64,000 nucleotides of DNA from Haplodiscus bocki (lineage: Eukaryota): contig OZ296652.1 of assembly GCA_965655095.1 (NCBI GenBank), forward strand, positions 60,078,001 to 60,142,000. Reading direction: 5' to 3'. Positions 18,707 through 60,519 of the stretch are shown here, piece after piece. The notes under the pieces were generated by a model. The model saw only the letters and a program-made list of their open reading frames with translations, searched no databases and was not told where the DNA came from. The first letter of the stretch is position 1, and each line of letters starts with the position of its first letter. Made by a program: the position numbers and the translations under genes.

Positions 18707-18715
18707 CAAAATTGA

Positions 18716-25660: not shown

Positions 25661-25871
25661 TGAAGAAGGAACGATCTCCACTTTCATTCGGAATCAATAG
25701 ATTCAGTGAATTTTCAAATCAATTACACAAAAACAGTTCTTCACAACCTGCTAGCAAACCCAATTCAACTGGAGGGAGACCGGCGTGATTCCGTTTATCA
25801 TTCAGCTAACTTAGTTTTAGGGCGACAATACCGAAGGGAGATATGACTGAAAGTTTCAACATTTTGAACTG

Positions 25872-30400: not shown

Positions 30401-31260
30401 AGTAGAAGAGAAATAGATAGGTGAGCAGATCAGGTGAGGAGGGGGTGGAGGCCCCTCCATGTAAAATGATAAAGTTTAAGAGCTCGGTTGAGCCTAAAAC
30501 CGAGAAGGGGCCTCCGTCCCACGGGAGAGCTCTCTAGTGATTTTCAATCTACTGATACTCGATTCTGCTTGGTTGCCGAGGGTTTTTGTGCTGGATTTTG
30601 ATTGGCTCTTCCAATTTTTTGGTTGTGGGCGAAAACAACGGCAATATCTTAAGATAGGAAATGATCTTCGGTGGGGTACTAAGATACTGATTTTCAGTAA
30701 CGTATTGGTAAAAATTTTAGGGTTGTGCGACCTATGAGGATACGCAGTGGGGATTTAAGACTCGTTTATGGCACTGTGAAATAACTTTTTTCGAAATCAA
30801 AGACGATGCTTCAAGATTGGAAATGATTTTCGGTATTGTATTGAGATGGGGAGTGACTTTCGGTATTGTATTAGTAGGAGCTATATGGTTTTGCAACGTG
30901 AAAAGATACGGAGTGGGGTTTAATGACTCCTTGTCGGCACTGTGGGACTACTTTTTGTTCAAGGAAATGGGCTTTTACCAAGAATTTTTCAGGCGTACCT
31001 GTCATTGCCCACTACCCGTGCGGATTCTTTATTACGCCTGTGGGTACCATGTTACGCCTTGGGTTTTTGTTTTGACTTATTGGCATCTGAAAATATCGCT
31101 CGACTACATATTGAGACAGTGTATTGAGAAGGGGTAGAGTTCAGTCATGTAAAAGGATAGTGTACAGTTGAGTAATGTATTAAGATAGGAAATAGTTCGG
31201 CGGTTATTAGCATAAATTTTACTTAGGTTATGCCTCGGGAAAAGTTGCTAGACGGAAAAA
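30401..31260 (+). repeat. Polinton-like TIR pointing rightwards, with decayed subterminal repeats
   Basis: agtagaagag...gtgagcagatcaggtgaggagggggtggaggcccc resembles 6726ff. Repeats include cggtattgtattgagatgggg and aatgtattaagatagg (~31174). Confidence 0.7.
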
Positions 31261-31689
31261 TTTGAAAAAGCGTATAGAATGTAAAATTTTGACTGTCGAA
31301 ACGCAAAAGAAATAAGGGCGGAAGTGCTAGCAAGTGTCACTAATTACAAAAAAAACTATTTGGAAAAAACATGAAATGAAAATCTGTCAGTCACTCTTTC
31401 CTTCTTATGGATACTATTGTGAGTTATTGCTTTGAAAAGAAACAAGTTAATTAGAGAAAAATTAATTAGAAGCGACAAATAATAACAAAAACATTGTACA
31501 ACATGCACACTTACAAAGAAATAATACGGTTGAAAACCCTACAAACAAGTAAACACGTGAGAAAATACTTAGCCTGTAATATGTCTGTTAAATTGAAACA
31601 AGAAGCAATCGATTTCACGAGAAGTTAAATAGAACTTAGCAAAGCAACGAACACAACACAAGGTTTTTATTGATGAAAAATGAACTTAC

Positions 31690-33130
31690 AAACTCAGTGG
31701 ATGTGTGTAAATTCCATCGTTTTCAAATACCTTTTTTAATTAGAATTACAACGATCCACGTTTGGTTTCTTCATAAGTTGCAACTGTGTGATCTTTTGTC
31801 CGAAACCTCTGTTTGTTAATGTAATTTTCACTGCATCATCAAGAACTTTGCGAAACTTCTCCAAATGTTGATCACTCTTCTGCTCTAGTTTTGGCCTATA
31901 AGGACCTTTGCTGCTGACCTCGAGGTTGTTCGACACAACATCTCGGCAGCAATAAATTTTGCCAAAAAGACTCAGCATTTCCGGACACCTGAATTCTTTT
32001 TTGAAGAGAGCCAGCTCTCTTTTGTCTTGTTTCTTGTATTTCGCTCAAACATTTCGTTGGAAGAATTCTCCTGAAATCATCACAGTTTGTGAATTTCATC
32101 GGCTGTTGAATGCAATTGGTCAGTTTTTTTTTCAGCAAGAGCTAAGTGGAGGGAATCGTTGTTCGTTTCAATTTCTTCCAAATTGTTGATGTTACAAAAA
32201 TTTGTCAAAAAAGTGGGATTAGAGCTCCATTATCTGTAGTTTTTAATAAAAATGAATGAAAAATCCGTTAACAACAGGTTCTTCCTGTGCAACTTCCGTT
32301 TTTGCAAGTTCTACTTTGTAGAGTTGATCGTTTACATGATCTAGTTTTTCGAAAAAATGGCTGAATATAGCACTGTGCATTTTATCATCGTTCAAGTACT
32401 TTGTTAACCTGCGTTGACTCAGATCCATCATTTGATAGCAATCGGACCTACTCGCTAACTATTTTATTGTTTTATTGTCTCAACGACTATATTGAATTTG
32501 GGTTCCGGTCACCTAGTCTTCTCGCATCCACAGCTGAATATAGAAAGTTGTTGAAGCAATTTTCTGCAAGGAACTCAACGAAGCGGTGTACTTTTTGTAC
32601 AAACGAGACCCAACTCAATATAGAACAACAGCAGAGGAGTGATGCGTGATTTATTTTGTATCTGTAGGCTTAAAATTAGCATTTTCTGAGGTTGGGACAT
32701 CAAGTCTTTTTCTTCTGCCTACCATTTCTTCAGTTTGCCAATATCTTCCCGATTGACTAAAGTGTTTTTGAAAAAAAAGGAAAGTTTCTCAAATGTGGTT
32801 ACCAAAAGTTGCGAAACTTTTTGTCACTCTGAAAACAACCAAACAGGTTTCCGCTCTTTATTTCTTCCAGAAGTTGATATTCTGCAAGTGAACATCCGTA
32901 CGAAAACTTTTCTCGTTTTTGTTGTTTAACACTATTGTCTGTTTTGTACTGTCTCCATCACTCACATTCCCATTCTCAAAAAGTGAAGCCGAAAAAAGGG
33001 AACAAGTGCTACCCATTAAAATTTTCTTCATATTGAAAGAAGAAGAACCGCACGAGCTATCAGTCACTTTCATCCACTCCTGCGGATACTGTTGTGACTT
33101 AAGGCTTTGTGAAAAAATTGTTCTACAAAT
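31690..33130 (-). pseudogene. pPolB C-terminal half remnant (Polinton)
   Basis: NFPFFFKNTLVNREDIG..MSQPQKMLI, MMDLSQRRLTKYLNDDK...LYKVELAKTEVAQEEPVVNGFFI, KIYCC...SSKG...TNRGF and ENDGIYTHPL. The 3' end points to the TIR at 30401. Confidence 0.85.
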
Positions 33131-33131
33131 T

Positions 33132-33780
33132 AACAAGTTATTTAGAGAGTACTAATAAAACCGAAAAATTGTATTTTCTGCACACTTACATTGAAATTGA
33201 GAAAATAAAAAGCCTACAAACAAATGAAAACATGTTTAGCGTGTGTTATCTATTTTATATTGAAATACGCACCAAACGAACAAACGAATCCACGAAAAAT
33301 TGAATAGAAAGTAATAAAGCAATAAACACAACAGAAAACTTTTTTGATAGAAAAATGAAATCAAAAGTTCAGTAAGTGTGTGTGAATTTCATTGTCCTCC
33401 AGTATCTTTTTTGAATGGATTTACGATAAGCCTCGTTTAATTTGCTCATACATTGAAACGATGTAAACATTCGGCCGAAAAACTATTTTGTTGTGTAATG
33501 CTTACTATATCAACAAGAACTTTGCGCTCAATTCCTAAAGAACGCTCAATGATATTTAAATTTGAAGAAAATTGCCGCCAATGTCACTCCAATTCTCGCA
33601 CACAAAAAATCAAATAAAAAAAACATAATACCTGTTGAAACTTGACTGCCTGCAGTTTCGACTGCAGGATCGGCATCACACGCACTACCGACAAATTTAA
33701 ACAAGCATCCCATTTGGAATTTGGTTCGAAAGTAGAGCGACGACAACGGAAAAAATCTAGTTCCTTGCCTCGGAAACGTC
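33132..33780 (-). repeat. Diverged direct duplicate of ~31441-32050 (pPolB 3' end and downstream)
   Basis: aacaagtta.ttagaga, tgcacacttaca, cctacaaacaa, aaagcaa..aacacaaca and tcaagaactttgcg/acaagaactttgcg are shared at ~1.69-kb offset. Confidence 0.75.
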
Positions 33781-33914
33781 TCTAATCTGTGGACTTCAAA
33801 TAATGTGCGCTTGAACGACTAAATAGTGACCGACTTGAAAGCTATTTAATTTTACATAACTTCTATCAATTACACTGCAGAATGAAAAAAACATAATATT
33901 GGATTTCACCCTTA

Positions 33915-34114
33915 NNNNNNNNNNNNNNNNNNNNNNNNNNNNNNNNNNNNNNNNNNNNNNNNNNNNNNNNNNNNNNNNNNNNNNNNNNNNNNNNNNNNNN
34001 NNNNNNNNNNNNNNNNNNNNNNNNNNNNNNNNNNNNNNNNNNNNNNNNNNNNNNNNNNNNNNNNNNNNNNNNNNNNNNNNNNNNNNNNNNNNNNNNNNNN
34101 NNNNNNNNNNNNNN
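33915..34114. other. Assembly gap (200 N)
   Basis: Run of N. Confidence 1.
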
Positions 34115-36299
34115 CGAGAAGACAAGCTAAGAGTCCATAAGTATATGCCTTCATGAAGTAATTTACATCAGGCTACTAAAATACATACAACCTTAAAGGA
34201 CCATTATAAATGACTATTGGATGTATCTTACATCAGTCTTTTGATATATAGACCGATGCAGTTTACAATATACTATAAAAAGCAAAAAGCAGCTAAGAGT
34301 CCAATAATGCAATCCATTTGGAAGTATATTTATCAATGTTTCCCCTTTCAGTCGCCTTTGTTTCTGGAATTGTACAATGGAACAAATTTAACCGAAACAA
34401 CTGCCTTTTCATTATGTTACGAGCGTATTTGGTGCTCTCTGTGAGTTTCCAGCATATGTGTTTTGTTTTCATTGGAATCAATTTGCGGCCAACCAACGTG
34501 TGCTGTTCCCGGTCAGTCGTGCCACCTCGTGATTACGTAGATTATATCCATTTCTTGATGATTTTGAAAACTTTTGCTGGAAACGAATCGTGTCAAAACA
34601 ATTCGATGTAATAAAAGTGTACACAATTTCAGACAAAAACAGCATCAGTCAATCTCCCAGTTGATTTCGTTTTCAAGCAGACTTGATGCCTGGAGGCGTA
34701 CGACTTGAAAAAAATTCTCGAACGTCATTTGAATTTTGTCTTTTCACAGTAAGGAAACTCTTTCCAATCCAGTTTTTGAAAGTCTATCATGTTCCTTGAT
34801 TAGTTCAAAATCAAGAAGTAATTTTAAGATTACCCATTAGTTTTGGTTGTTGCAAAGAAATTTTCCCAAGAACTGATTCTAAAAGGGAAAAGAGTAGCAA
34901 AAAACAGTATCCTAAAGCAAAAAAAATTGAAGGCTGAGAGCACCGGACAAACAATTGAAAGAAAACAACTGATATTTGGTTCATTGTTGATAATTTATGA
35001 TAAGGAAACAAATCTGCATTGTCCTAACTTGAGGCGTGATGAATCAATCATACCTCAATTGTGTTTGAACGTTTTCCACAAAGCGTTGGAGACGGTTAAG
35101 ATCTTCGTTGGCGGGCTATATACGTGACCTAGAGAGATGACAGAAAAAAACTGCATACCTTTAATCATCGAACATCAGAATTCAGAAAGGAAGAATGAAG
35201 AAGAGAAGATGTCATTTTGGAAAAAAAACTGTGCTCTGCGGCGCTTGCATGCAATCAAACGGACCAATGAGTTCCAGAAATATCTCAACCAACGCTTTGA
35301 CTCCCTAGGTCTTGTTCCTTCAGCAAATCGGTCAGTGTAATTTCAACTTTTTCACACTCCCCATGAAAGTCGTGAGAGGACTATTGCCTTGTGAGGCTGG
35401 AACACTTCATTCTCTAGCTTATCACGGGGACTTTGAACATCACCGACTTTGCTAGATGCATTGTCAATTCAGTTTATGTTTTTTTTGTACGTCACTCATT
35501 TTCACACCCAGTCCATAATTCACGCCCAGTCCTCTGAAGTCAGTGGCATGCAAATAAAACTCAATATGCGTAACCCTGCAACACCGCGTTTTTGTTTTCG
35601 GGAAAAAATCAAATCACAATTAGAGCCATTGTTTTTGATTCTTTTAACTGCGTAAGAATCTTGACCAGCTACAGTTTTTTTGTTTCAGGGTGATGCTAAT
35701 TGGCAGAGTGAACTTGGGTTTAGTTTCAGATCCACTTCATTTCAAAACAAAGATACGTTTTTGGAAAGCAGTTGTGGTTATATTGTACCTGTGAGAGAAC
35801 TAGTTCTGCCAACAAAAATGTCATTTTAGTTCAACATTTTTTTACCAGATGTAGATCGAAACGATTTTCAAGCTTTTTCGAAGAGTAGAGCTTCCGTCTG
35901 GGAAATCTAGATCACATACTTGGGAAGATTGATAAAAAGATAGTCTTAATTAATTGAGAAGCAAGTTTTCATAAGAAACTCCAAATATTCAAAAAGAAAT
36001 CAAGCTCTGAGAGGCCGTATACCTTCTTCGCTTTGAGTGAGCGTGTTTTTTGCCAACACTCACAACGGTATTTCTCTCTGGAGAGCCAATCAAAGTTACC
36101 GGTAACTGAATCCAACTACAAAGTTAGTTGGTTAGTTGTGCCGCGCCGAGGTAATTCGGAACACAGAATAGTGTTTAAAACCAAACCAGCGTACAAGTCA
36201 AATTATTTCAATTTTAATTAGTGGCCAAGAAATTTTGACGGCCATCAGTAACGTAGTTTTTGAGAATAGCAAACCCAGATTAGTGAACAACACAATGCA

Positions 36300-38580
36300 T
36301 AAACTAGATGCAAAATGCTCGAAACAGGAGAATAGAAAACTAAATTTGAAAAGTATCGCTTCTATTTCTACTTCTTCTCAGAACTTTGTTGGTATTGACA
36401 AATGAAATTGGCAAATGAAGATACTGTTGAAACAAACTGTTTACATTTTAAACTGATCTAAATCACATTGTTTACCTAAATGATTGCAATCAGTAGAAAT
36501 AATTCTCCAAGCCTAGTTCTGGTAACAGTGTTGATATCGGGGAAATCCTCTGAAGTTCACTCTCTTATGTTGAGCTGTTAAGCTTAAATTCCAAGCGATG
36601 CTTCAAAAGATCCAACAAGGTTTTGAGGTATAGAGTTGCAAAAGAAAATCAATTGTTTGGTCAAGCTTCGTGAAATGAAGGCAAAGATAAGGAAAAAAGT
36701 TGCATCGATGGTGTCTCAGTGCTCTGTTCTCGCACACAACTGACGTTGAACTCAGAACTAGCCAAAAATTTGAACAACGACCGCTTTTTGTGAATGCAAT
36801 TCGAAAAAAAGCATGCTTACCAAGATGAAGATGGGTTTCCCGTTTTTAATAGGCGTTCAATGTATGAACGTATTACACTTGTTTACTGTGTCTTGCTGAA
36901 CGTCGCTCCAAGTTTCTTTTTCTGTTGAATGACAAACATCTTTGATATCGTTTTCTTTGATATGAAAAAGATGGGCGTACAAGTTGAATTGTTTTCATGG
37001 ATCAATAAAATCTACCTTAAAAAGAAAAAGTTTTGCGTAACAATCAACTGGTGAAAACAAGAGTTCTTACTCTTTCAGAGTTTGTTTCGGTTAACACTCC
37101 TCGACACAATTATTCACAAAGCAGGTTGTTGAAATCGTTTCTAGTTTCTAGTACTTGAGTGAACGTTCCGCAACGACAAATTTTCAAAGACGAAACTCTT
37201 TTTGTATCAAAAGCAAGACACGATTCCTTTTCAACGGGACAATTTCAATTTAGGTCAATTTCGCAACCGTCCATCAGAAGGAACTGTTAAATTTATCTCT
37301 TTAGTGGTCTTTTTCTTGAACATCGAAAATACTACCCTCAGAAAAATTCCAGAACAATGTCACACGTGGTTCCCAGTTTTCACTCAAAGTGTGCAGAACA
37401 GATTTTCCTTTTATCTAAAAGTACTTTCAAGAGAGAATTCATTTTAAAAGGTCAACGTGTTGTCTACCACAGCCCACAGTGGCTTTCGGCAGACCAGTTC
37501 ATGGGAATCTCACTATGGACGTAGTAGAGGAAAAATTTAGCAGTTACTGAAAAAATTAGAAACACTGTGCATAACCCACAAAAAAAATGTTTTTTTTTAA
37601 AATCTTTTTGACTAACAAGTCAGCGGCAACATCATTACAAAGCGTGAAGACGTGTTCGTCCGGTTACAGTGAGTTGTTGGTGTCAACCTAAGAATAGGCG
37701 CAGAAAAAATCTAGTCTTGTGAAGAAGACACGTTTGAAGTAGAAGTTCAAAAAACACCTTTCAAAAACTTTTTGGTGTTCAGTATCGCAACAGAAAGGAA
37801 AAAGTTGGTGTCTGCAACAACTTGTCATCAAATCAGAAAGACTAAATGTGATTTGCAATTGGTTAAAGTTGTAGATTCTTTGCTAGGTGAAGATGGTTTT
37901 ATTAATGAAAAAAGTGGTTTCGTTGAGAAGGAAGACATTTGAGCTCGTTTTTTTTCTGCCTGAGTTAAGGACTCGATCCCATCCATTGGATACCGCAAAT
38001 TATCCCCGATGGTATACAAGTTATGAGACATTTAATACAGGTACCGTATGTACACAAACTATTGCCAGTTTTTACCGAAAAGAAAACAATTTTTCATTTA
38101 ATGCACTGAAAGGCCGAAGGCAGTAATTCTTCGGAAAATAAAAACTGCAGCACTTGCTGAAGTGAATGCAAGTGTACAACAATTTTTGCTGCTTAGAAAG
38201 CAAATTTTGTCGCAGATGCTGTTAAGTTGTAAAATATTTGATTCAAAATCTGTCGCGTTTTGAAATTGTCATTTCAAGAACTGACAGGAAGTAAAATTTT
38301 TCAATTAAAGTCCGTTCCTCTTCAGCTCATTCGGAATCATGCTTATATAACAATCACAAAAAGCAAAAGTTGACGTTTTTGTGCAGTATAAAGTGTGGAA
38401 TTGTGATTTTTTGGAGGATCAATTCTGTTCCAAATATGATTTTAGGTTCCAAAACCTGTAAACTGAATCTCTGAGAAAGTGTAAAAAACATATTTCAACG
38501 TCCCACATCAACTAAAAAGGTTGATGCGAAGTTTGGCTTCCGACCAAAACAATGCGTCAGAAGAATGCTTTTTAAGCAGC
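36300..38580 (-). repeat. Left arm of an old inverted repeat (mirror of ~39445-43000), including a minus-strand pPolB N-terminal remnant at ~36300-36930
   Basis: Reverse-complement matches: tttcccgtttttaataggcgttcaatgta (36836) vs array unit; ttttcgatgttcaagaaaaaga (~37310 vs 40733); aaaactgggaaccac (~37366 vs 40652); taggtgaagatggt (~37884 vs ~40153); tgcgtcagaa....gctttttaa (~38553 vs ~39450). Confidence 0.8.
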
Positions 38581-41269
38581 AACAAAAAGCAAAATTAAAC
38601 GTTTTTATGGATTAATACGAGTCGATATTTGATTACTTTGTTTGCACACTTTTGTTTAAAATTAAATTTTTTAAAAAGACTCTTCCCAAAAAAGGACGTG
38701 CTGTGTGAAACTTGATTGAGAATTGGCAAATTGTAAAATTTCTGATCCACATTCTCTCCAATTAAAATATACACTGTCAATTGCAAGAAACTGACTGTTC
38801 TGTGTACTGACGAGTTGCTTTAGACTATAATAAAACAATGAGGGTCACCAAACTAGCGGAAAGCTCTTGGGTCTTTCTTGCGTCATCATTATTTGATTCT
38901 GAGTAGCCAATGAGTTTTTTTGTTCAATTTTGTATGAATGTGACCATTTTTTCTCCCACGGTACTGTATTAAGGAATTAAATGGATTTCGTTTCGGTAGA
39001 GGCACAGTATAGATTTTTCCCGCTTGTGTAAGCTTTCTCAAAGCAAGCGGTGTGTCCACCTATGTGTTAAGGTTGCTTATACTTCGTCACTGTACTCGCA
39101 TAAGCTTTGTGTTCAGGTGTTCATTTTGATAGGGGTTCAATCTATTGAAATCAATGAGTGTGATTGGTGGAATAATAACTTGTTTGTCGGTGTATTAGTA
39201 GTCAGGTTCTTGCAAAAAAACAGTTTTGAAAAGTAATAATTAGGCCCAAAAACTCCACAATGTGTCGGATTCAGATCAAGTTTTGTCAATGAGGTCGGTT
39301 TTTGGTTCAAAATTTTTTACAGCCTTTCTGATTTTGCAATTAAAAATTTTTTGTTAAGTTGGACAATGGACAAAATTTTGCATCCACTGAACCTTGTTTG
39401 GACACATTTCTCTGTGTGAAGATTTCAAAGTTTTGCACTTTCGGGTACTTTTTAAAAAGCAAGTTTCTGACGCACCTTTTACTGTGAAAGCTAATTTCTG
39501 AATAAAAATAATTACATAAAATTGGAATATGGAACGAGTTTTCAATTTCTTTCCTGACTTTTAATATCGATTTTTTCTAAAACAGAAACAGATTTGAAAC
39601 AACACTGAACCGGCGAGAAAAAGAGATCACGTTTTGACACCTTTTGTTCCTAAAACGTCAATTTTTCTTTTTTTATGCTTTCTGAAGAATCATGAATCTA
39701 AGACATTTTTTTCAAAATACCTTACTTTGAAATAAATTTTTGACGTCTTAGTAGACTTTGAATCAACTGTTTTATGTCGTGTCAGATTTCGAATCATAAT
39801 GTTTACAACGCGGTAGACATTGACTCAACACTTTCACAACCTAACAAATCTTGCTGAGAGAAAGTTTTCAAAAAAAGCAAAAATTGTTTGAAACTTTCTT
39901 TCAATTTACCAAGTACTGCTTTTATTCGCAAAATTAACTGCTTTCGGTTTTTCTGTCCATCAAAAGATAAGTAGTGTTCTTTTCAGTGGAAGCCTGCATT
40001 AGTTTCCATAGATTCGGTACCTCTCCTAAGTGCCTCATAGTTTGGATACCAAGGGCGGTGATTTTCAAAGTCCAATAAAGGTGAAACCATCTTGAACTGA
40101 GGCAGAACAAAATGTATTTCCTCTGAAACAGAACCATTGTTTCATCACAAAGACCATCTTCACCTAAAAACAACATATAATTTTAACCAAATGCAATTCA
40201 AATGTATCTTGTTTTTCTAATTTCGTGACAGGTTAGTGCAAGCAGCGACTTGCTCCTTTTTGTTGAGATACTGACCTTTGAAAAAGTTTTATGAAATTTT
40301 CTTTCAAAAGTCTCTTCTTTACAATAAATAAATTTTTCCACGCTTTTTTATAGGTTGAAACCAACAACTCTCTGTACATTGACAAGCACATCTTCCTATT
40401 TTGTATTGTTGTTGGCACTGAATTGATACCTAAATACAAAAAAAGCAGTATATATGTTTATGGGTGATGCGGAGTGTATCTAACTTTACCAGTAGATGCT
40501 TAACTTTGTTTTTTGTTGAGAATGCAAAAGTGAAAACCGTGAACAAATTAGGCGCAAACCATCGTGTTAGGCAACACGGTGATCTCAAAACATGAAGTAT
40601 CTCTCAAAAGCGTTTCCAGGTAACAATGCTTTCTGTGCTGCACTTTGGGTCAAAACTGGGAACCACCCGTAGCAATAAAGGTGCCAACTGATTGTTGGAA
40701 TGTTTGTGAAATAACTTTTTCTGAAGGTAAGTTTTTCGATGTTCAAGAAAAAGATCAATAAAAAGAAATGGTTTTAACAGTTCTTTCTAATGGACGGTGC
40801 CGTAATTGACGTAGATTGAAAACTTTTTGTTTATGAGGAATTGGACTGTGGTATTGTTACAAATTAGAAAAAAAAAGAATTCATTTTTTGAAGCTTCTCG
40901 TTGCGGAACCCGCTTTCAAGTAAAAGAATTTAGAAATTAATTCAACAACCTGCACTTTGAAGAATTGCGTCGAGAAGTGTTGAGGGAAAGAAATTTAAAA
41001 ACAGGCAGAACTTTTGTTTTCACCAATTCATTGTTGCCCAAAACAATTTTTATTGTAAATTTAATCAATCTCGAAAAACAAGTCAACTTGTATGCTCATT
41101 TTTCACATATTATGGAAAAATGACGCTAAGAAACATAGAGGATAAAAACAAAAAATCAGACACAAATGTCAAGATTTTGGTTGAAAGTTTCACAGTGATT
41201 CATGATGTTTCAACAAGAAAAACAGTACATATTTCAGAAGAAATATGTGCAACAGGAAGAGACTCTCCC

Positions 41270-46800: not shown

Positions 46801-49800
46801 TCAAGATTCTTAAAAGAGATGCTGTGCTTTTCTAGTAAAAACTGTTGTTGCTCAAATATCTAGTAAAACATGTTGATGTGTTGCAACAAATGTCTCAGGA
46901 AACAAATACCGGAACGAAGCGGTGTCGGAGCTCCACCAAAGCATCGGAACGTTTTTGATAAGACAATGATGGTTTCAGCGGCAGTAGCTTTATGACAAAT
47001 TGTCACACCGTTTCTACATAATAACAAACTAGACCAGATTTTTTTTCATCCCATAAGGACTGTTGAGGACATTGGAGTTCGGACACAACCAGTGAAATTG
47101 TAATTGAACTTTTTTGTCAAAAATTTTCTTAATTGTGTTTGATGCGTGTTTACGTCTCAGTAAACATTTCGGTTTTCTATTTGTTTCTTTGTTTCAACCC
47201 AACTCAGGTAACACTAAGACTTGCAAGATACATAGTGGACAAAAACAAAAATTCAGACACAATTGTCAAGAATTTGGTTGAAAGCTTCACAGTGATTCAT
47301 AATGTTTCAACAAGAAAAACAGTACAATTTTCAGAAGAAATATGTGCAACAGGAAGAGACTCTCCCATATTTAATTACAGATAACTTTACCGATAAAATT
47401 CTTTTAAAACAATTAACAACCATGTGAGCAGTTTTTGTTGCCTCTGAAAATACAAATCGAGATTTAGAAATCTAGAAATCGCAATAAAACTCTTACTATG
47501 AAGATTGGGGAAAAAATTACCATATCTTCAGAAACTTGATTTGCTCAACCGAGTGAATCCACTATTTGAATTCTTGTTCCGAATCATAGAAGATGGAAAG
47601 TTTGAAGAACTGCAAAGCACGAAAACAATAGTTTTGTAGACTGATTGAAATTTGGGTTTTTTGAAGAAGACATGACGTAGTTGATAGATGTTCTGAACAA
47701 AACAGATGTGATTCAAATATGTTTCACAGAGAATGAAAGAGAAAGGAAGAGGTTGAGAGAGACACACATACAGACAAACAGAAAGACAGACAGACAGACA
47801 TACAGACAGACAACCAGACAGACAGACAGACAGACACACACAGACACACAGAGAGAGAGAGAGACAACAAAAAAGTGCTGTTCTCCAAGTTGACAATTTT
47901 TTTTGTGTTTGATGTTTCACTCAAAGAAGTACTTATGAGCTGTAAAGATGCAAAGTTGCTGAAAGCCATTTTGAAGAATCAATCATTGAATTGTCACACT
48001 TTAAAATACAAACAAGACAGCTTTACAAAGATGACTTTCGTATATTTAGAGCACTTGATTTCTGTTAGCGTGGTAACCATAAACTGGAAGAAACTGGAAG
48101 AACAAATTTTGAAGAAACGCAATTCACTCACTGCAAGAGTCGGAAGATGCAAACGTAATCGCATTCCATGAACTTGTGTGAACGATTTTCAAGTTGTTTG
48201 GGATTTTCCGCAACATGACTGTTGCATTTATGAAACAGATTTTGTACACCGAAATCATATAGCTGAACTTGGTAGACGAAAGTTGCAAAAACACAAAAAA
48301 CTTCGAAAACTCGGATACCCCAATCGCGTGTGTTTGTGAGAATATTCAGTGCTCTCTTCACAGTGTTCTGTTTTACGTCATGTAACACTTTCAATCAACA
48401 AAAAATGAGTTTTGTAGAGACATCCAGTGGGACATAGTGAACAAGTGAACCACGTTTGTACAATGAACGCCTATTAAAAACGGGACGTTCCTCCTAAAAT
48501 GCCGGCCTCTTTTCGGATAGCATACCAAAAAAGCGGTCGCTATCTATTTTTTAAATCTTTTTTTGAGTTGAAATTCATTTTTGTGCGAGAACAAAGCTCC
48601 TGAGACACAACCGATTAAAAAAATATCTTTTTTCCTATCTGCGTCTTCATACTGTGAAGCCGGATTAAGCACTGGGTTATCTTTTGCAACTCTGATCCTC
48701 AAAATAATTGTTGCAACCTTTAAAGCATCACTCAAAATTCAGGCGTCCCATAGCAAAATGAACTTTTTTAAATAAAAAGTAACCCAGATATCGACACAAT
48801 TATAAAAATCACATTTGCAAAAAATTGGAAACACTCAACCACCATCATAATCGAGGCGAGCTGATCAAGTTGGATTTGAGATCAGAGGCTTTCAAGAAGC
48901 TAATTTTTAAATGCCAGTCTGTTGAAAACCTCGAAATGCACATGAATCAACTGATTGAGCAACAAAAACTTCTGAAGCGTTACTGTAACGCGTTACTTGT
49001 CTCTATTTTTCTCACTTCATAAATGGATATCACCTTGATCAAGTCGTATTTGTGACTTGCAATGATCGACTAAAGAGACAATGGAATCTGTGGATCATGG
49101 AAAAGCTAATGAAAAGCTTTATCAAAACTTTTGATGACCTTCACTTCTTGGATATTATGAAATTTTTTGGTAGAGCTATAAGTCCTAACTTTATTTCCAA
49201 GACAAAAAGACCTCATAAACGAATGACTGCTCCTTTGCGATTTGTTTCATCAACCTGAGAAGATGAAAAACACGGAACTCCGTCCATTTTGCGCTTTTCA
49301 CGGGAAACTCTGTATCCCTAATCCTCCTGAAGCAAAATGGACGAAAGATGCCATTTTGTTGAGAAGTTCCATCACAGCAGTGCAAATTGCTGCCAAATTG
49401 AAGTTGTCAAAACGTCAGCTTCGAAAAGCAACTTGTTCACAAAAGAAAATCAATTACCCCGCCAATTGTACGAAGTATAACTTGCGACATCAGAAGTTGA
49501 ACACAAGGAGTCGGGTATTGCTAGACTTCTAATTTTTGTTCACTATGGAAAACTACCGATTTAGGAGATCTATTACAACTTCTTCAGACCCTTTTGTGGT
49601 ACTAGGTTTTTGGGGAGTGGGAAATTGATACAGATTCTCTTTATCCTGCTGTTGCCGAAACAGAGCTCACGCATCGCATCGGAATTAAAATGAAAGCAGA
49701 ATGGAAGATTTTGCGACACAGTGGCTACTACAAAGAGTTCGTTGCGGAAGCAAAAGGCACTTTTTCCCCAACGCTTGATGCAATACACACATAAAGCACA

Positions 49801-52800
49801 GTAGGAGAGACGCAAGTCTTTTCAAAGAATATTTCAAGATTCTTAAAAGAGATGCTGTGCTTTTCTAGTAAAAACTGTTGTTGCTCAAATATCTAGTAAA
49901 ACATGTTGATGTGTTGCAACAAATGTCTCAGGAAACAAATACCGGAACGAAGCGGTGTCGGAGCTCCACCAAAGCATCGGAACGTTTTTGATAAGACAAT
50001 GATGGTTTCAGCGGCAGTAGCTTTATGACAAATTGTCACACCGTTTCTACATAATAACAAACTAGACCAGATTTTTTTTCATCCCATAAGGACTGTTGAG
50101 GACATTGGAGTTCGGACACAACCAGTGAAATTGTAATTGAACTTTTTTGTCAAAAATTTTCTTAATTGTGTTTGATGCGTGTTTACGTCTCAGTAAACAT
50201 TTCGGTTTTCTATTTGTTTCTTTGTTTCAACCCAACTCAGGTAACACTAAGACTTGCAAGATACATAGTGGACAAAAACAAAAATTCAGACACAATTGTC
50301 AAGAATTTGGTTGAAAGCTTCACAGTGATTCATAATGTTTCAACAAGAAAAACAGTACAAATTTCAGAAGAAATATGTGCAACAGGAAGAGACTCTCCCA
50401 TATTTAATTACAGATAACTTTACCGATAAAATTCTTTTAAAACAATTAACAACCATGTGAGCAGTTTTTGTTGCCTCTGAAAATACAAATCGAGATTTAG
50501 AAATCTAGAAATCGCAATAAAACTCTTACTATGAAGATTGGGGAAAAAATTACCATATCTTCAGAAACTTGATTTGCTCAACCGAGTGAATCCAGTATTT
50601 GAATTCTTGTTCCGAATCATAGAAGATGGAAAGTTTGAAGAACTGCAAAGCACGAAAACAATAGTTTTGTAGACTGATTGAAATTTGGGTTTTTTGAAGA
50701 AGACATGACGTAGTTGATAGATGTTCTGAACAAAACAGATGTGATTCAAATATGTTTCACAGAGAAAGAAAGAGAAAGGAAGAGGTTGAGAGAGACACAC
50801 ATACAGACAAACAGAAAGACAGACAGACAGACATACAGACAGACAACCAGAGAGACAGACAGACACACACAGACACACACACAGAGAGAGAGAGAGAGAC
50901 AACAAAAAAGGGCTGTTCTCCAAATTGACAATTTTTTTTGTGTTTGATGCTTCACTCAAAGAAGTACTTATGAGCTGCAAGGATGCAGAGTTGCTGAAAG
51001 CCATTTTGAAGAATCAATCATTGAATTGTCACACTTTAAAATACAAACAAGACAGCTTTACAAAGATGACTTTCGTATATTTAGAGCACTTGTTTTCTGT
51101 TAGCGTGGTAACCATAAACTGGAAGAAACTGGAAGAACAAACTTTGAAGAAATTCAATTCACTCACTGCAAGAGTCGGAAGATGCAAACGTAATCGCATT
51201 CCATGAACTTGTATGAACAATTTTCATGTTGTATGGGATTTTCCGCAACATGATTGTTCTGTTTATGAAACAGATTTTGTACACCGAAATCATATAGCTG
51301 AGCTTGGTAGACGAAAGTTGCAAAAACACAAAAAACTTCGAAAATTCGAATAAACCAATCGCGTGTGTTTTGTGAGAATATTCAGTGCTCTCTTTAAAGT
51401 GTTCTGTTTTACGTCATGTAACACCTTCATCAACAAAAAATGAGTTTTGTAGAGACATCCAGTGGGACATAGTGAACAAGTGAACCACGTTTGTACAATG
51501 AACGCCTATTAAAAACGGGAAGTTCCTCCTAAAATGCCGGCCTCTTTTCGGATAGCATACCAAAAAAGCGGTCGCTATCTATTTTTTAAATCTTTTTTTG
51601 AGTTGAAATTCACTTTTGTGCGAGAACAAAGCTCCTGAGACACAACCGATTCAAAAAAAAATAACTTTTTTCCTATCTCCGTCTTCATACTGTGAAGCTT
51701 GATTAAGTACTCGGTTATCTTTTGCAACTCTGATCCTCAGAACCTTGTTGCAACCTTTAAAGCATCACTCAAAATTCAGGCGTCCCATAGCAGAATGAAC
51801 TTTTCTAAATAAAAAGTAACCCAGATATCGACACAATTATAAAAATCACATTTGCAAAAAATTGGAAACACTCAACCACCATCATAATCGAGGCGAGCTG
51901 ATCAAGTTGGATTCGAGATCAGAGGTTTTCAAGAAGCTAATTTTTAAATGCCAGTCTGTTGAAAACCTCGAAATGCACATGAATCAACTGATTGAGCAAT
52001 GAAAACTTCTGAAGCGTTACTGTAACGCGTTACCTGTCTCTATTTTTCTCACTTCATAAATGCATATCACCTTGATCAAGTCGTATTTGTGACTTGCAAT
52101 GATCGACTAAAGAGACAATGGAATCAGTGGATCATGAAAAAGCTAATGAAAAGCTTTATCAAAACTTTTGATGACCTTCACTTCTGGGATATTATGAAAT
52201 TTTTTGGAAGAGCTTTAAGTCCTAACTTTCTTTCCAAGCCAAAAAGACCTCATAAACGAATGATTGCTCCTTTACGATTTGTTTCATTAAAATGAGAAGA
52301 TGAAAAACACGGAACTCCGTCCATTTTGCGCTTTTCACCTAAAACTCTGTATCCCTAATCCTCCTGAACCAAAATGAACGAAAGATGCCATTTTGTTGAG
52401 AAGTTCCATCACAGCAGTACAAACTGCCGCCAAATTGAAGCTGTCAAAACGTCAGCTTCGAAAAGCTACTTGTTCACAAAAGAAAATCAAGCACCTCGCC
52501 AATTGCACGAAGTATAACTTGCGACATCAGAAGTTGAACTCAAGGACCCGGGTATTGCTAGACTTTTAATTTTGTTCAGTATGGAAAACTATGGATTTAA
52601 GAGATCTATTACAGTTTCTTCAGACCCTTTTGTGGTACTAGGTTTTTGGGGAGTGGGAAATTGATACAGATTCTCTCTATCCTGCTGTTGCCGAAACAGA
52701 ACTCACGCATCCCATCGGTATTAAAATGAAAGCAGAAAGGAAGATTTTGCGACCCAATGGCTACTACAAAGAGTTCGTTGCGGAAACAAAAGACACTTTT

Positions 52801-53904
52801 TCCCCATCGCTTGATGCAATACACACATAAAGCACAGTAGGAGAAACGCAGGTTTTCAAAGAATATTTCAAATGATTATATACTTAAAGGAGTTGCTGTG
52901 TTTTTGTAGTAAAACTTGTTGTTGCTCAAATATCTAGTAAAACATGTTGAAGTGTTGCAAGAATTGTCTCAGGAAACAAATACCGGAACGAAGCCGTGTC
53001 GGAGCTCCAAAAAGGCATCGGAACGTCTTTGATATAACAATGAAAATTTCAGCAGCTGAGGTTTTATGACATATTGTCACAACGTTGCAACATAATAACA
53101 ACCTAGACCAGATTTTTTTCATCCCATAAGGACTGTTGAGGACATTGGAGTTCGGACGCAACCAGTGAAATTGTAATTGAACTTTTTTGTCAATAAATTT
53201 CCCATTTGTGTTTGATGCGTGTTTACGTCTCAGTGAACGTTTCGGTTTTCTATTTGTTTCTTTGTTTCAACCCAACTCAGGTAACACGAAGACTTGCAAG
53301 ATACATAGTGTACAAAAAACAAAAATTCAGACACATTTGTCAAGAATTTGGTTGAAAGTTTCACAGTGATTCATAATGTTTCAACAAGAAAAACAGTACA
53401 ATTTTCAGAAGAAATATGTGCAACAGGAAGAGACTCTCCCATATTTAAATACAGATAACTTTACCGATGAAATTCTTTTAAAACAATTAACAACCATGTG
53501 AGCAGTTTTTGTTGCCTCTGAAAATACAAATCGAGATTTGAAAAACTAGAAACCGTAAAAAAACTCCTACTATGAAGATTGGGGAAAAATTTACCATATC
53601 TTCAGAAACTTGATTTGCTCAACCGAGTGAAACCAGTATTTGAATTCTTGTTCCGATTCATAGAAGATGGAAAGTTTGAAAAACTGCACAGAACGAAAAC
53701 AATAATTTTGTAGACTGATTGAAATTTGGGTGTTCTGAAGAAGACATGACGTAGTTGATAGATGTTCTGAACAAAACAGATGTGATTCAATCATGTTTCA
53801 CAGAGAAAGAAAGAGAAAGGAAGAGGTTGAGAGAGACACACAGACAGACAAACATAAAGACAGACAGACAGACATACAGACAGACAGCCAGACAGACAGA
53901 CAGA

Positions 53905-53952
<48 letters not shown>

Positions 53953-56902
53953 GACAACAAAAAAGGGCTGTTTTCCAAGTTGACAATTTTTTGTGTGTTT
54001 GATGCTTCACTCGAAGAAGTACTTATGAGATGCAAGGATGCAGAGTTGCTGAAACCCATTTAGAAGAATCAATCATTGAATTGTCACACTTTAAAATACA
54101 AACAAGACAGCTTTACAAAGATGACTTTCGTATATTTAGAGCACTTGTTTTCTGTTAGCGTGGTAACCATAAACTGGAAAAAACTGGAAGAACAAACTTT
54201 GAAGAAACTCAATTCACTCACTGCAAGAGTCGGAAGATGCAAACGTAATCGCATTCCATGAACTTGCGTGAACGATTTTCAAGTTCTTTGGGATTTTCCG
54301 CAACATGACTGTTGCGTCTATGAAACAGATTTTGTACACGGAAATCATATAGCTGAACTTGGTAGACGAAAGTTGCAAAAACACAAAAAAACTGCGAATA
54401 TTCGAATACCCTAATCGGATTTGTCTTGTGAGAATTCTAAGTGCTCTCTTTACAGCGTTCTCTAATACGTCATGTAACACCTTCATCAACAAAAAATGAG
54501 TTTTGGAGAGACATCCAGTGGGACATAGTGAACATGTGAAACACGTTTGTACATTGAACGCCAAGTAAAAACGGGAAGTTCCTCCTAAAATGCCAGCCTC
54601 TTTTCGGATAGCATAGCAGAAAAGCGGTCGCTATCCTTTTTCAAAATCTTTTTTTGAGTTCAAATTCACTTTTGTGCGAGAACAAAGCTCCTGAGACACA
54701 ACCGATACAACAAAAAAAATATTAACTTTTTTCCTATCTCCGTCTTCATACTGTGAAGCCTGATTAAGCACTGGGTTATCTTTTGCAACTCTGATCCTCA
54801 AAATAATTGTTGCAACCTTTAAAGCATCACTCAAAATTCAGGCGTCCCATAGCAGATTGAACTTTTTTAAATAAAAAGTAACCCAGATGTCGACACAACT
54901 ACAAAAACCACGTTTCAGAAAATTGGAAACACTCAACCACCATCATAATCGAGGCAAAATGATCAAGTTGGATTTGAGATCAGAGGCTTTCAAGAAGCTA
55001 ATTTTTAAATGCCAGTCTGTTGAAAACCTCGAAATGCACATGAATCAACTGATTGAGCAACAAAAACTTCTGAAGCGTTACTGTAACGCGTTACCTGTCT
55101 CTATTTTTCTCACTTCATAAATGGATATCAATTTGATCAAGTCGTATTTGTGACTTGCAATGATCAACTAAAAAGACAATGGAGTCAGTGGATCATGAAA
55201 AAGCTAATGAAAAGCTTTATCAAAACTTTTGATGACCTTCACTTCTTGAATATTATTAATTTTTGGGTAGAGCTATAAATCCTAACCTTTTTTCCAAGCC
55301 AAAAAGACCTCATAAACGAATGATTGCTCCTTTACGATTTGTTTCATCAACCTGAGAAGATGAAAAACACGGAACTCCGTCCATTTTGCGCTTTTCACGG
55401 GAAACTCTGTATCCCTAATCCTCCTGAAGCAAAATGGACGAAAGATGCCATTTTGTTGAGAAGTTCCATCACAGTAGTGCAAATTGCTGCCAAATTGAGC
55501 TGTCAAAACGTCAGCTTCGACAAGCAACTTGTTCACAAAAGAAAATCAAGCACCTCGCCAATTGCACGAAGTATAACTTGCGACATCAGAAGTTGAACAC
55601 AAGGAGCCGCGTATTGCTAAACTTTTTTATTTTGTTCAGTATGGAAAACTACGGATTTATGAGATCTATTACAACTCCTTCAGACCCATTTGTGGGACTA
55701 GGTTTTTGGGGAGTGGGAAATTGATACAGATTCTCTCTATCCTGCTGTTGCCGAAACAGAACTCACGCATCCCATCGGTATTAAAATGAAAGCAGAAAGG
55801 AAGATTTTGCGACCCAATGGCTACTACAAAGAGTTCGTTGCGGAAGCAAAAGACACTTTTTCCCCATCGCTTGATGCAATACACACATAAAGCACAGTAG
55901 GAGAAACGCAGGTTTTCAAAGAATATTTCAAATGATTATATACTTAAAGGAGTTGCTGTGTTTTTGTAGTAAAACTTGTTGTTGCTCAAATATCTAGTAA
56001 AACATGTTGAAGTGTTGCAAGAATTGTCTCAGGAAACAAATACCGGAACGAAGCCGTGTCGGAGCTCCAAAAAGGCATCGGAACGTCTTTGATATAACAA
56101 TGAAAATTTCAGCAGCTGAGGTTTTATGACATATTGTCACAACGTTGCAACATAATAACAACCTAGACCAGATTTTTTTCATCCCATAAGGACTGTTGAG
56201 GACATTGGAGTTCGGACGCAACCAGTGAAATTGTAATTGAACTTTTTTGTCAAAAATTTTCTTAATTGTGTTTGATGCGTGTTTACGTCTCAGTAAACAT
56301 TTCGGTTTTCTATTTGTTTCTTTGTTTCAACCCAACTCAGGTAACACTAAGACTTGCAAGATACATAGTGGACAAAAACAAAAATTCAGACACAATTGTC
56401 AAGAATTTGGTTGAAAGCTTCACAGTGATTCATAATGTTTCAACAAGAAAAACAGTACAATTTTCAGAAGAAATATGTGCAACAGGAAGAGACTCTCCCA
56501 TATTTAATTACAGATAACTTTACCGATAAAATTCTTTTAAAACAATTAACAACCATGTGAGCAGTTTTTGTTGCCTCTGAAAATACAAATCGAGATTTAA
56601 AAAACTAGAAACCGTAAAAAAACTCCTACTATGAAGATTGGGGAAAAATTTACCATATCTTCAGAAACTTGATTTGCTCAACCGAGTGAATCCAGTATTT
56701 GAATTCTTGTTCCGATTCATAGAAGATGGAAAGTTTGAAAAACTGCACAGAACGAAAACAATAATTTTGTAGACTGATTGAAATTTGGGTGTTCTGAAGA
56801 AGACATGACGTAGTTGATAGATGTTCTGAACAAAACAGATGTGATTCAATCATGTTTCACAGAGAAAGAAAGAGAATGGAAGAGGTTGAGAGAGACACAC
56901 AG

Positions 56903-57046
56903 NNNNNNNNNNNNNNNNNNNNNNNNNNNNNNNNNNNNNNNNNNNNNNNNNNNNNNNNNNNNNNNNNNNNNNNNNNNNNNNNNNNNNNNNNNNNNNNNNN
57001 NNNNNNNNNNNNNNNNNNNNNNNNNNNNNNNNNNNNNNNNNNNNNN
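56903..57046. other. Assembly gap (144 N) covering the unit-6 microsatellite
   Basis: Run of N. Confidence 1.
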
Positions 57047-59838
57047 TTTCCAAGTTGACAATTTTTTGTGTGTTTGATGCTTCACTCGAAGAAGTACTTA
57101 TGAGATGCAAGGATGCAGAGTTGCTGAAACCCATTTTGAAGAATCAATCATTGAATTGTCACACTTTAAAATACAAACAAGACAGCTTTACAAAGATGAC
57201 TTTCGTATATTTAGAGCACTTGTTTTCTGTTAGCGTGGTAACCATAAACTGGAAAAAACTGGAAGAACAAACTTTGAAGAAACTCAATTCACTCACTGCA
57301 AGAGTCGGAAGATGCAAACGTAATCGCATTCCATGAACTTGCGTGAACGATTTTCAAGTTCTTTGGGATTTTCCGCAACATGACTGTTGCGTCTATGAAA
57401 CAGATTTTGTACACGGAAATCATATAGCTGAACTTGGTAGACGAAAGTTGCAAAAACACAAAAAAACTGCGAATATTCGAATACCCTAATCGGATTTGTC
57501 TTGTGAGAATTCTAAGTGCTCTCTTTACAGCGTTCTCTAATACGTCATGTAACACCTTCATCAACAAAAAATGAGTTTTGGAGAGACATCCAGTGGGACA
57601 TAGTGAACATGTGAAACACGTTTGTACATTGAACGCCAAGTAAAAACGGGAAGTTCCTCCTAAAATGCCAGCCTCTTTTCGGATAGCATAGCAGAAAAGC
57701 GGTCGCTATCCTTTTTCAAAATCTTTTTTTGAGTTCAAATTCACTTTTGTGCGAGAACAAAGCTCCTGAGACACAACCGATACAACAAAAAAAATATTAA
57801 CTTTTTTCCTATCTCCGTCTTCATACTGTGAAGCCTGATTAAGCACTGGGTTATCTTTTGCAACTCTGATCCTCAAAATAATTGTTGCAACCTTTAAAGC
57901 ATCACTCAAAATTCAGGCGTCCCATAGCAGATTGAACTTTTTTAAATAAAAAGTAACCCAGATGTCGACACAACTACAAAAACCACGTTTCAGAAAATTG
58001 GAAACACTCAACCACCATCATAATCGAGGCAAAATGATCAAGTTGGATTTGAGATCAGAGGCTTTCAAGAAGCTAATTTTTAAATGCCAGTCTGTTGAAA
58101 ACCTCGAAATGCACATGAATCAACTGATTGAGCAACAAAAACTTCTGAAGCGTTACTGTAACGCGTTACCTGTCTCTATTTTTCTCACTTCATAAATGGA
58201 TATCAATTTGATCAAGTCGTATTTGTGACTTGCAATGATCAACTAAAAAGACAATGGAGTCAGTGGATCATGAAAAAGCTAATGAAAAGCTTTATCAAAA
58301 CTTTTGATGACCTTCACTTCTTGAATATTATTAATTTTTGGGTAGAGCTATAAATCCTAACCTTTTTTCCAAGCCAAAAAGACCTCATAAACGAATGATT
58401 GCTCCTTTACGATTTGTTTCATCAACCTGAGAAGATGAAAAACACGGAACTCCGTCCATTTTGCGCTTTTCACGGGAAACTCTGTATCCCTAATCCTCCT
58501 GAAGCAAAATGGACGAAAGATGCCATTTTGTTGAGAAGTTCCATCACAGTAGTGCAAATTGCTGCCAAATTGAGCTGTCAAAACGTCAGCTTCGACAAGC
58601 AACTTGTTCACAAAAGAAAATCAAGTACCCCGCCATTTGTACGAAGTAAAACTTGCGACATCAGAAGTTGAACACAAGGAGCCGCGTATTGCTAAACTTT
58701 TTTATTTTGTTCAGTATGGAAAACTACGGATTTATGAGATCTATTACAACTCCTTCAGACCCATTTGTGGGACTAGGTTTTTGGGGAGTGGGAAATTGAT
58801 ACAGATTCTCTCTATCCTGCTGTTGAAGAAACAGAACTCACGCATCCCATCGGTATTAAAATGAAAGCAGAAAGGAAGATTTTGCGACCCAATGGCTACT
58901 ACAAAGAGTTCGTTGCGGAAGCAAAAGACACTTTTTCCCCATCGCTTGATGCAATACACACATAAAGCACAGTAGGAGAAACGCAGGTTTTCAAAGAATA
59001 TTTCAAATGATTATATACTTAAAGGAGTTGCTGTGTTTTTGTAGTAAAACTTGTTGTTGCTCAAATATCTAGTAAAACATGTTGAAGTGTTGCAACAATT
59101 GTCTCAGGAAACAAATACCGGAACGAAGCCGTGTCGCAGCTCCAAAAAAGCATCGGAACGTTTTTGATATAACAATGAAAGTTTCAGCAGCTGAGGTTTT
59201 ATGACATATTGTCACACCGTTGCAACATATTAACAACCTAGACCAGATTTTTTTTCATTCCAAAAGGACTGTTGAGGACATTGGAGTTCGGACACAACCA
59301 GTGAATTTGTAATTAAACTCTTTTGTCAAAAATTTTCTCAATTGTGTTTGATGCGTGTTTACGTCTCAATAAACATTTCGGTTTTCTATTTGTTTCGTTG
59401 TTTCAACCTAACTCAGGTATCACTAAAGAGAAAACTTTCACTTGTTGCTATGTTTTTTATCATCAGGTTTTTTCTGCAGATGCTTAAGAAAAAACCAAGT
59501 TTGTGGTGGAGTTTTTAAAATTTTGTTGGTTTTCTCAAACTTTGGTTCAATCTTTTAACAAAACCCTTGAACAAAATCAGCATCCTTTGAAACATTTTTA
59601 AACATGAGAGTTATCGAACTAGAGTTTGTGGCTCCGTACTGCTGTCGTTTCCTCGAAAAACTATCCGCTGGGGGAATTAATTTTTCGCAGGCATTTCGAG
59701 CGAGCTGCGCATTCATTGGCCAGCGATGAGTCTGCCCGATTTTTGTTTTTCGAAAAGGTCCATTTTCGGGAAAAAACAATCTCCTTGTGCCAAACATGAG
59801 TCAGAAAAGCCTCTTTTGTAAATTCATACGTTTCAAAA

Positions 59839-60237
59839 ACTTCAAGTCTTTTTTTGATGCAACGCCAAAAGTCTCTCCCTAAATTAAAACACTGCCGAAG
59901 CCACTCTCTAACTCAATACACTGCCGCAAATGATTTTCTTGGAACATTGCCCAAAATACTGGGCTCGGGTTTCTTATTACATTGACTACTGAGCACGCAT
60001 GGCGAGGGCATTGCCCTTATTAATACATTGACTGCTTATGCCGAGAACCAAAAGGCTTTTGCCGAGAACCCTCGCAATGCCTGCTCAGTAGTCAATGTAT
60101 TAAGATACCCGAGACCAGTGTTTTGGGCAATGTTTCAAGAAAATCATCTTCAGCAGTGTATTGAGTTAGAGAGTGATTCCGGCAGTGTTTTAATTTAGGG
60201 ATAGATTTTTGGCGTTGTAACAAAAAAGAGTTGAAGT
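59839..60237. repeat. ~400-bp fold-back (arms 59839-60008 and 60069-60237, ~60-bp spacer) built from TIR-type subterminal repeats
   Basis: For example ccctaaattaaaacactgccg/cggcagtgttttaatttaggg and tacattgactactgagca/tgctcagtagtcaatgta. Confidence 0.9.
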
Positions 60238-60239
60238 AT

Positions 60240-60510
60240 ACGCTATCTTAATACATTGACATCATGACTTAATGAACTGCCAACCTAACTCAAATTCTTA
60301 GAGTCGCCAAAAACCAAGTCGGCAGCCAATCAGAACCTTCCTTAACAACTCACAGGTGAGCATGAACAACGATTTAGGCGCCGGCTGGCCTTCCTCTGGA
60401 TTCTCTGATTTTCAGGAAAACCAGACGCTATACCCTTTCTTAATACCTGGAAGACCATCCACCCCCTTTCCACCTGACTTGCTCACGTAAATATTATTTT
60501 TGTCCTTGCT
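60240..60510 (-). repeat. Polinton-like TIR pointing leftwards
   Basis: Reverse complement gtgagcaagtcaggtggaaagggggtggatggtcttcca resembles 30421ff. Contains tatcttaatacattgac and gtcggcagccaatcaga (60318). Confidence 0.65.
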
Positions 60511-60519
60511 TTGATTTTT

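Follow-up and report, generated by a model that had tools for sequence, protein, structure and literature searches.

The question raised by this locus is whether about 30 kb of Polinton-like sequence, at 30401-60510 of the window (the whole 64,000-nucleotide stretch of Haplodiscus bocki DNA that was analysed), arose as one fold-back or from several separate pieces. The original prediction was a single 30-kb fold-back. This is partly supported: inward-facing terminal inverted repeats (TIRs), outward-running remnants of the polymerase gene (pPolB) and a mirror-image core are present, but the right side carries a tandem array, the left arm is composite and the central spacer is smaller than proposed. 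The region appears to be a composite of long-dead Polinton pieces, not one 30-kb fold-back, and the mirror-image core spans only a few kb (~6 kb) once the array and a second element are removed from the 30 kb. The reading that we prefer, with a probability of about 0.58, is stepwise accumulation of Polinton debris: a mini-element, its inverted duplication, a left end from another copy and a later array.

The structure is a Polinton-derived relic, not an intact member of the Polinton/Maverick group. An exhaustive protein search with the left remnant matched 653 proteins at E<=0.001, the closest of which are pPolBs such as P0163, P0162 and P0195. The relative P0007, which itself has 875 relatives among 8000 candidates, was assigned to Pfam PF03175 (organellar/viral type B polymerase, E 2.4e-12), and P0239 is named from the acoel Convolutriloba macropyga. 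Matches to the pPolB profile in the window reach E 3e-47. The protein-primed family B polymerase of Polinton/Maverick elements is present as broken remnants only. All copies hold many stops and frameshifts, and amino acid identity to eight intact relatives in frameshift-aware alignments is 46-54% for the outermost left remnant (remnant A), 35-45% for the 3' part of the right arm and 31-40% for the inner-left remnant. Two other features of the group are lacking, as the monomer (~6.4 kb) falls below the unit length of 13-25 kb and there is no 5-8-bp target site duplication (TSD). Genes for integrase, ATPase, protease and capsid had no Pfam match, in scans that also missed the pPolB fragments. 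Nothing reached the curated cut-off among 33 selected window ORFs (best E 0.003), and the six frames of 34115-36420 gave no significant match. A word-index protein search with a 93-aa pPolB fragment (0/10 candidates significant), a PDB search with P0007 (0 matches) and an Rfam search (0 matches) were also negative. No intact reading frames were found within the structure, every pPolB copy being broken. It encodes nothing intact, and any mobility would be hypothetical.

Related TIRs face inward at the two ends, as had been proposed. Self-alignment recovered an inverted match of 30377-30506 to 60531-60401 (66%, E 4.5e-6), and with nhmmer the end match reaches 30309-30617 versus 60603-60292 (E 5e-11). 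The outer-left TIR/subterminal remnant lies at 30399-30659 on the plus strand, with an AGTAG-like start at ~30400 (AGTAG is the Polinton terminal motif), and the outer-right TIR remnant, identified by profile and pairwise matches, lies at 60241-60511 on the minus strand. At ~300 bp and 66-70% alike, the TIRs are within the Polinton range of 100-1500 bp, and may stem from two different copies. The outer-left TIR contains a 10-bp inverted repeat (30447-30456/30506-30515, profile positions 49-58/108-117) that was equalled in 3/200 shuffles. The outer-right TIR folds a stem across a similar span; the outer TIRs of the first element in the window (6.7-19.0 kb) have no comparable significant inverted repeat. 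The left subterminal region (30630-31189, plus strand) contains a direct duplication of 165 bp and 28-bp repeats akin to the ones in the element at 6.7-19 kb. Its mirror on the right is weak (30827-31072 versus 59901-59656, nhmmer), and the right subterminal region holds a younger local hairpin at 59839-60237, with 169-bp arms that are 89% alike and a loop of ~60 nt.

No TSD had been reported, and we likewise found 0 matches in 960 terminus/length combinations. A TSD of this age could have been erased by decay. Inverted similarity over ~90 bp outside both outer termini was reached by 1/500 random segments and 0/300 shuffles in an anchored test, for which the anchor was picked after the alignment had been seen, and did not rank when 4210 windows were scanned without an anchor. 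No inverted homology was detected in the wider flanks (1.5 kb on either side). If real, the ~90-bp similarity would tie both outer ends to one insertion site, and thus counts against the composite reading.

The predicted mirror around the centre was recovered by self-alignment (36951-38594 versus 41119-39431, 65% over 1748 columns, E 2e-179). The inner-left mirror arm (36951-38796) contains decayed small ORFs and pairs with 41119-39200; this inner-right mirror arm (39200-41119) holds a reading frame at 39934-40182. Both peptides quoted in the original prediction occur in the sequence, one of them within this frame. The small ORFs of the inner mirror, which we take to resemble the small ORFs of acoel Polintons, yielded no usable ESM Atlas match (two ORFs) and 0/312 candidates in a profile search. 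The core arms are 72% alike at the nucleotide level (28% of sites differ, with 44 gap openings and a divergence of ~0.35 substitutions per site), and both fall inside 34115-56902, which contains no assembly gap. Remnants of pPolB run outward, as described earlier, with minus-strand copies at 31689-32990 and 36488-36929 and plus-strand copies from 41277 onward, and self-alignment also agrees that the left arm lacks the counterpart of 41120-42315. Further inverted blocks pair 36503-36932 with 42761-42316 (65%, E 3e-45), 31576-32362 with 59423-58598 (57%) and 33084-33516 with 59585-59161 (60%). The arm blocks are collinear from TIR to centre, but the left arm, 8.4 kb long, aligns to the right over only ~4.2 kb. 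E-values were not taken from tblastx, in which the self-comparison is noisy (sum statistics).

Descent of both pPolB arms from one copy had been set as the test of the fold-back. The inner-left remnant (36427-36932, minus strand, ~reference aa 402-549) joins the right-arm pPolB with support of 100/99 under the LG+C20 mixture model (16/40 references) and 99.7/100 under LG+G4 (22/40 references), and the common stem is 0.96, compared to tips of 0.42 and ~0.85 (LG+C20). The two arms have an in-frame stop in common at 36848/42400 and 6/36 common changes at conserved sites. Across the three codon positions, identity hardly varies (0.63/0.64/0.62 and 0.67/0.68/0.64; 105 codons). In simulations on random codons the third-position deficit was 0.03+-0.06 under neutrality and 0.20+-0.05 for subfamilies 20% apart, a test that leaves room for a very close subfamily (deficit ~0.09). 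No 3-periodicity was detected in the 1282 nt of ungapped inner mirror (p=0.58). NG86 ratios were not used, as the neutral control provided by the array units was also <1 (0.70-0.95). The inner arms appear to be true sisters that diverged with no sign of selection, as expected from duplicating one copy; the pPolB comparison covers ~105 codons on long branches, and the single common stop may be parallel. Given the common stop, the flat codon positions and the long common stem, the copy was probably already dead when it was duplicated.

The outer part of the left arm, which goes with the TIR at 30401, shows no history in common with the right arm in the comparisons made here. It contains two pPolB 3' ends in tandem (31689 and 33367): remnant A with its 3' flank at 31331-32990 (minus strand, coding 31689-32990, ~reference aa 1000-1446), which carries 7-8 stops and 8 frameshifts in frameshift-aware alignment, and remnant B with its 3' flank at 33003-33634 (minus strand, coding 33367 to ~33634). 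A and B are sisters (73-75% nucleotide identity, with one in-frame stop in common at 31748/33423), and either is less similar to the right arm (64-68%). We also considered whether B truly mirrors the 3' end of the right arm, and rejected this because B is closer to A.

Remnant A and the right arm both join the base of one clade with a common stem of ~0 (trees with all 51 references and with 15/51). They have 2/107 shared changes at conserved sites, versus 6/36 for the inner pair (P=0.003), and their DNA identity is 64-67% ungapped, versus 72% for the core, with an amino acid identity of 0.32. Simulation without a shared stem gave 0.29+-0.03 for amino acids and 0.63+-0.02 for DNA, and with a shared stem 0.45+-0.04 and 0.73+-0.02. 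Thus, the outer pair fits the simulation with no shared stem and probably did not have the history of the inner pair. A clade of the outer-left end and the right arm was not rejected by the AU test (p=0.50). The branch to A is 1.15 versus ~1.8 for the right arm, so that A is less decayed from intact relatives; the right arm is the longer in both comparisons. Past purifying selection on the outer pair may be suggested by protein-guided codons (P 0.005-0.25 over six comparisons), but the third-position deficit is 0.045-0.115 (5/60 neutral simulations reach the mean of 0.087), DNA-concordant codons show no deficit and periodicity is flat (p=0.67-0.86).

From these comparisons, we infer that the left arm is composite and that its outer end, which shows no sister relationship to the right arm, had a separate origin. 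Descent from one copy was found at 36.4-38.8 kb and not at 31.7-33.6 kb. The switch between the two histories falls across a 200-N assembly gap, located at 33915-34114 within the left arm as reported previously, and 2.3 kb of DNA (34115-36426) with no match to the right arm, the rest of the window, the pPolB profile or Pfam. The true size of the gap may differ from 200 nt; 200 N is in use as a scaffolding placeholder. The sister relationship holds for the inner arms but is not seen for the outer-left end. What recurs within 64 kb is the architecture of the core and centre; there is no such recurrence of the 30 kb as a whole.

The right arm contains six tandem units of ~3.05 kb (41128-59426, plus strand, with starts at 41128, 44197, 47225, 50258, 53298 and 56358). 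Each unit has a broken pPolB, in which reference aa ~104-741 are joined to ~1210-1446 (aa ~741-1210 are missing from every unit), together with an (AGAC)n tract and a 3' flank of ~120 bp. In unit 6, a 144-N gap (56903-57046) takes the place of this tract. By nhmmer, unit pairs are 93-99% alike: 14/15 are at 93-97%, i.e., differ by 3-7%, and units 5/6 are at 98.9%. Neither the array nor the 144-N gap featured in the original prediction. The 30-kb length was inflated by this later array, since ~15 kb of it consists of the five extra units. With the array collapsed, the right monomer is ~6.4 kb (38845-44196 plus 59427-60511).

The centre (38797-39199) consists of two abutting TIR-like remnants and then 28-bp-repeat-like DNA. 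The spacer, estimated previously at ~0.85 kb, is ~0.4 kb, as the mirror carries on weakly to 38796/39200 (94/140 identities, a score reached by 0/300 random segments). We identified TIR-like remnants at 38808-38855 (minus strand, a weak profile/pairwise match) and 38845-38949 (plus strand, a TIR profile match), and 28-bp-repeat-like sequence at 39057-39175 by pairwise comparison. Pairwise, the plus strand at 38831-38998 resembles the outer-left TIR and the minus strand at 38818-38855 has 30/38 identities to the TIR of the first element; 5/12 pairwise tests of the centre versus Polinton ends beat all 200 random segments. The TIR profile matches the plus strand at 38845-38949 with profile positions 110-216 (E 0.0015 window-wide) and, weakly, the minus strand at 38847-38810 from profile position 52 (E 0.058-0.2; this minus-strand match partly overlaps the TIR's own inverted repeat and is absent when the structure's own outer TIRs are the query). 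There were no profile matches on the reversed window.

The opposed TIR-like remnants meet near 38846. In profile coordinates this junction is at ~52 and ~110, which matches the site of the 10-bp inverted repeat in the outer-left TIR. Beside the junction, ~20 nt of loop-like sequence is in flipped orientation. This location is suggestive, as it is the one expected of a fold-back at the TIR stem-loop. Because the centre is TIR-like, instead of being some random point inside the element, both core arms probably extended to the element's other end. The core has the appearance of an inverted dimer in which two copies of a Polinton with an internal deletion are fused at the pPolB-distal ends. The element at 6726-19037 has a similar centre, in which opposed TIR-like sequences meet at 12732/12738; one side of that centre is in the TIR profile training set and the other side has E 0.0004.

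In the stepwise history that we propose, a Polinton would first have lost its core genes, leaving a ~6-kb mini-element composed of a TIR, small ORFs, a broken pPolB and a TIR. Loss of the other genes is suggested by the monomer length and by TIR-like sequence at both ends. The dead copy would then have given rise to an inverted duplicate, the pPolB-distal TIRs of the two being joined near 38846. At the sequence level, common ancestry and common decay of the two core copies are established. Fold-back at the TIR stem-loop is the most likely route: a break or cut near the terminus could allow the 3' end to fold back on the short inverted repeat of the TIR, followed by fill-in and replication of the hairpin. 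Subsequently, the left copy would have lost 1.2 kb plus its entire outer part. The 30.4-33.9-kb segment that now closes the left side would derive from a different copy within this family, whose TIR and 3' end of pPolB were perhaps brought alongside by chance or by scaffolding; this left end is itself tandemly duplicated and lies beyond the assembly gap. Much later, a 3.05-kb piece of the right copy would have become six units, adding ~15 kb, probably via unequal crossing-over. The array itself is directly observed.

Two near-identical dead non-autonomous mini-Polintons, mobilised in trans, could instead have inserted head to head, one copy into or beside the TIR of the other, with the terminal bases at the junction lost later. 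Copies of a single non-autonomous family should show common decay and flat codon positions, and the centre is TIR-like. In the available part of PMC5932611, the junctions of DNA transposon dimers are often missing terminal sequence, and inverted tandems are described, although they are generally rare there, and Mavericks are given as 4.5% of one acoel genome in the available part of PMC6451197. However, the junction coincides with the internal inverted repeat of the TIR, the ~20 nt of flipped loop-like DNA fits a fold-back, and a similar centre occurs in the other structure in the window (12732/12738). We consider a double insertion to be rather unlikely. An assembly artefact as the source of the mirror or the array is very improbable. 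There are two N gaps (200 N and 144 N), the join across the 200-N gap rests on the assembly, and one unit may be overcounted, since the 98.9%-alike units 5/6 flank the 144-N gap. However, inside the gap-free 34115-56902 the core arms are 28% different and their alignment opens 44 gaps, and the 3-7% differences in 14/15 unit pairs are far beyond sequencing error.

A single old palindrome, extending from TIR to TIR and perhaps including the ~90 bp of flank, could have formed while pPolB was nearly intact, and its inner 2.4 kb could have been re-homogenised later by gene conversion, followed by local duplications and insertions. This would account for the collinear blocks from TIR to centre, the anchored flank similarity and the missing TSD, which a chromosomal duplication predicts. 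It is also compatible with the outer-left plus right clade (p-AU 0.50) and with an outer-pair third-position deficit that is not clearly beyond neutral (0.087 in 5/60 simulations). Yet an extra conversion is needed, the edge of which happens to fall within the gap and the 2.3 kb of unmatched DNA. Furthermore, A is less decayed than the right arm (1.15 versus ~1.8, though the right arm is longer both times), and the flank match is absent in the unanchored scan. We regard the old palindrome as distinctly unlikely, and favor the stepwise history.

As it stands, the region is dead repeat DNA that serves mainly as a caution, in that a 30-kb "palindrome" reduces to a ~6-kb core. The point of wider value is that a TIR-to-TIR centre was found twice in 64 kb. 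Tentatively, and with doubt outweighing belief, a stem-loop in the Polinton TIRs of this lineage may prime fold-back at a cut or broken terminus, generating recurrent head-to-head dimers that are fused at truncated TIRs and able to integrate as units. The two structures in the window, which differ in age (~0.1 and ~0.35 substitutions per site) and both have an asymmetric centre derived from TIRs, would then be independent instances. If true, recurrent dimers would be snap-back defective genomes, a product of the element's own end processing. If this TIR stem-loop proved to be the junction site throughout the genome, such junctions would preserve a fossil record of the way Polinton ends are cut or excised and primed, and they could be sources of hairpin RNA, as in the maize Ac/Ds case.

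Polinton replication is known mostly from models; a TIR-annealing model and a hairpin-priming alternative are discussed in the available part of 10.64898/2026.07.28.741278. No palindromic Mavericks are described in the available part of 10.1101/2025.01.09.631634, and we found no report of Polinton inverted dimers in the open-licence literature, which is weak evidence of absence. Polinton/Maverick elements are self-synthesizing, 13-25 kb in length, with TIRs of 100-1500 bp, a TSD of 5-8 bp, pPolB and integrase (PMC10748475, in part). Like them, the structure has a PF03175-family pPolB that ends ~1.2 kb from the TIR and AGTAG-like termini. Unlike them, it has broken frames, a ~6-kb monomer, no TSD, an inverted pair and no detected integrase or capsid gene.

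Judged from its arrangement, the core would behave as an inverted duplication of transposon DNA made by fold-back. Short inverted repeats are established sites of fold-back priming, which yields giant palindromes (PMC7999016, in part); these also have an inverted duplication with a short asymmetric centre beside a pre-existing short inverted repeat. In the present case, by contrast, the short repeat belongs to a transposon TIR, divergence between the arms is 28% and the duplication has lost its outer limit. A study of tandem and inverted TE dimers and TE-derived arrays in Drosophila deals chiefly with whole-element, head-to-tail dimers (PMC5932611, in part). Those dimers are similar in having a junction lacking terminal TIR bases and TE DNA expanded into a tandem array, but the array unit here is an internal pPolB fragment. 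Finally, composite insertions of maize Ac/Ds include inverted duplications formed via alternative transposition (10.1101/2020.01.07.897926, in part). In both cases an inverted duplication of element DNA is tied to a transposon end; the maize system differs in that it involves an active element with cut-and-paste hAT chemistry.

The first element, at window positions 6726-19037, is a palindromic Polinton derivative that is younger than the decayed, composite inverted pair at 30401-60510. Its two arms share 88-92% identity, its ends are exact (AGTAGT/AGTAGC), and the inverted homology ends at its termini. The flanking hexamers are identical at 4/6 positions, a possible decayed target site duplication. 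The start of the protein-primed family B polymerase (pPolB; reference aa 1-54) occurs at 8115 and at 17269, both facing outward, and the centre (12732/12738) is a junction of subterminal sequence resembling the terminal inverted repeats, in opposing orientations. The first element is a better candidate than the 30401-60510 structure for a dimer that integrated as a unit. The element appears to lie within a palindromic host repeat built of 22-bp units (6604-6723 and 19038-19820).

In the right arm of the older structure, the six ~3.05-kb units with broken pPolB (41128-59426) are mosaic. Units 2-4 are 99% identical over their first 540 bp and 94-96% identical over the remainder, a pattern that suggests conversion or unequal exchange. 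The array begins within ~10 bp of the inner edge of the deletion in the left arm (the missing counterpart of 41120-42315; 41119-41128 and 36932-36951). No match to the first ~90 pPolB codons was found at these sites.

Other repeats were identified in the window. The sequence at 29093-29265 is weakly similar, in direct orientation, to the right subterminal region at 59655-59821 (E 0.004-0.02), and is possibly a further Polinton remnant. A direct duplication (25635-25785 and 25851-25999; offset 216 bp, 75% identity) was also found; a 216-bp duplication is present in the first element too (15667-16089). Subterminal sequence at 59839-60237 forms a third inverted duplication, the loop of which (~60 nt) is close in size to the loop in the centre of the first element (68 nt).
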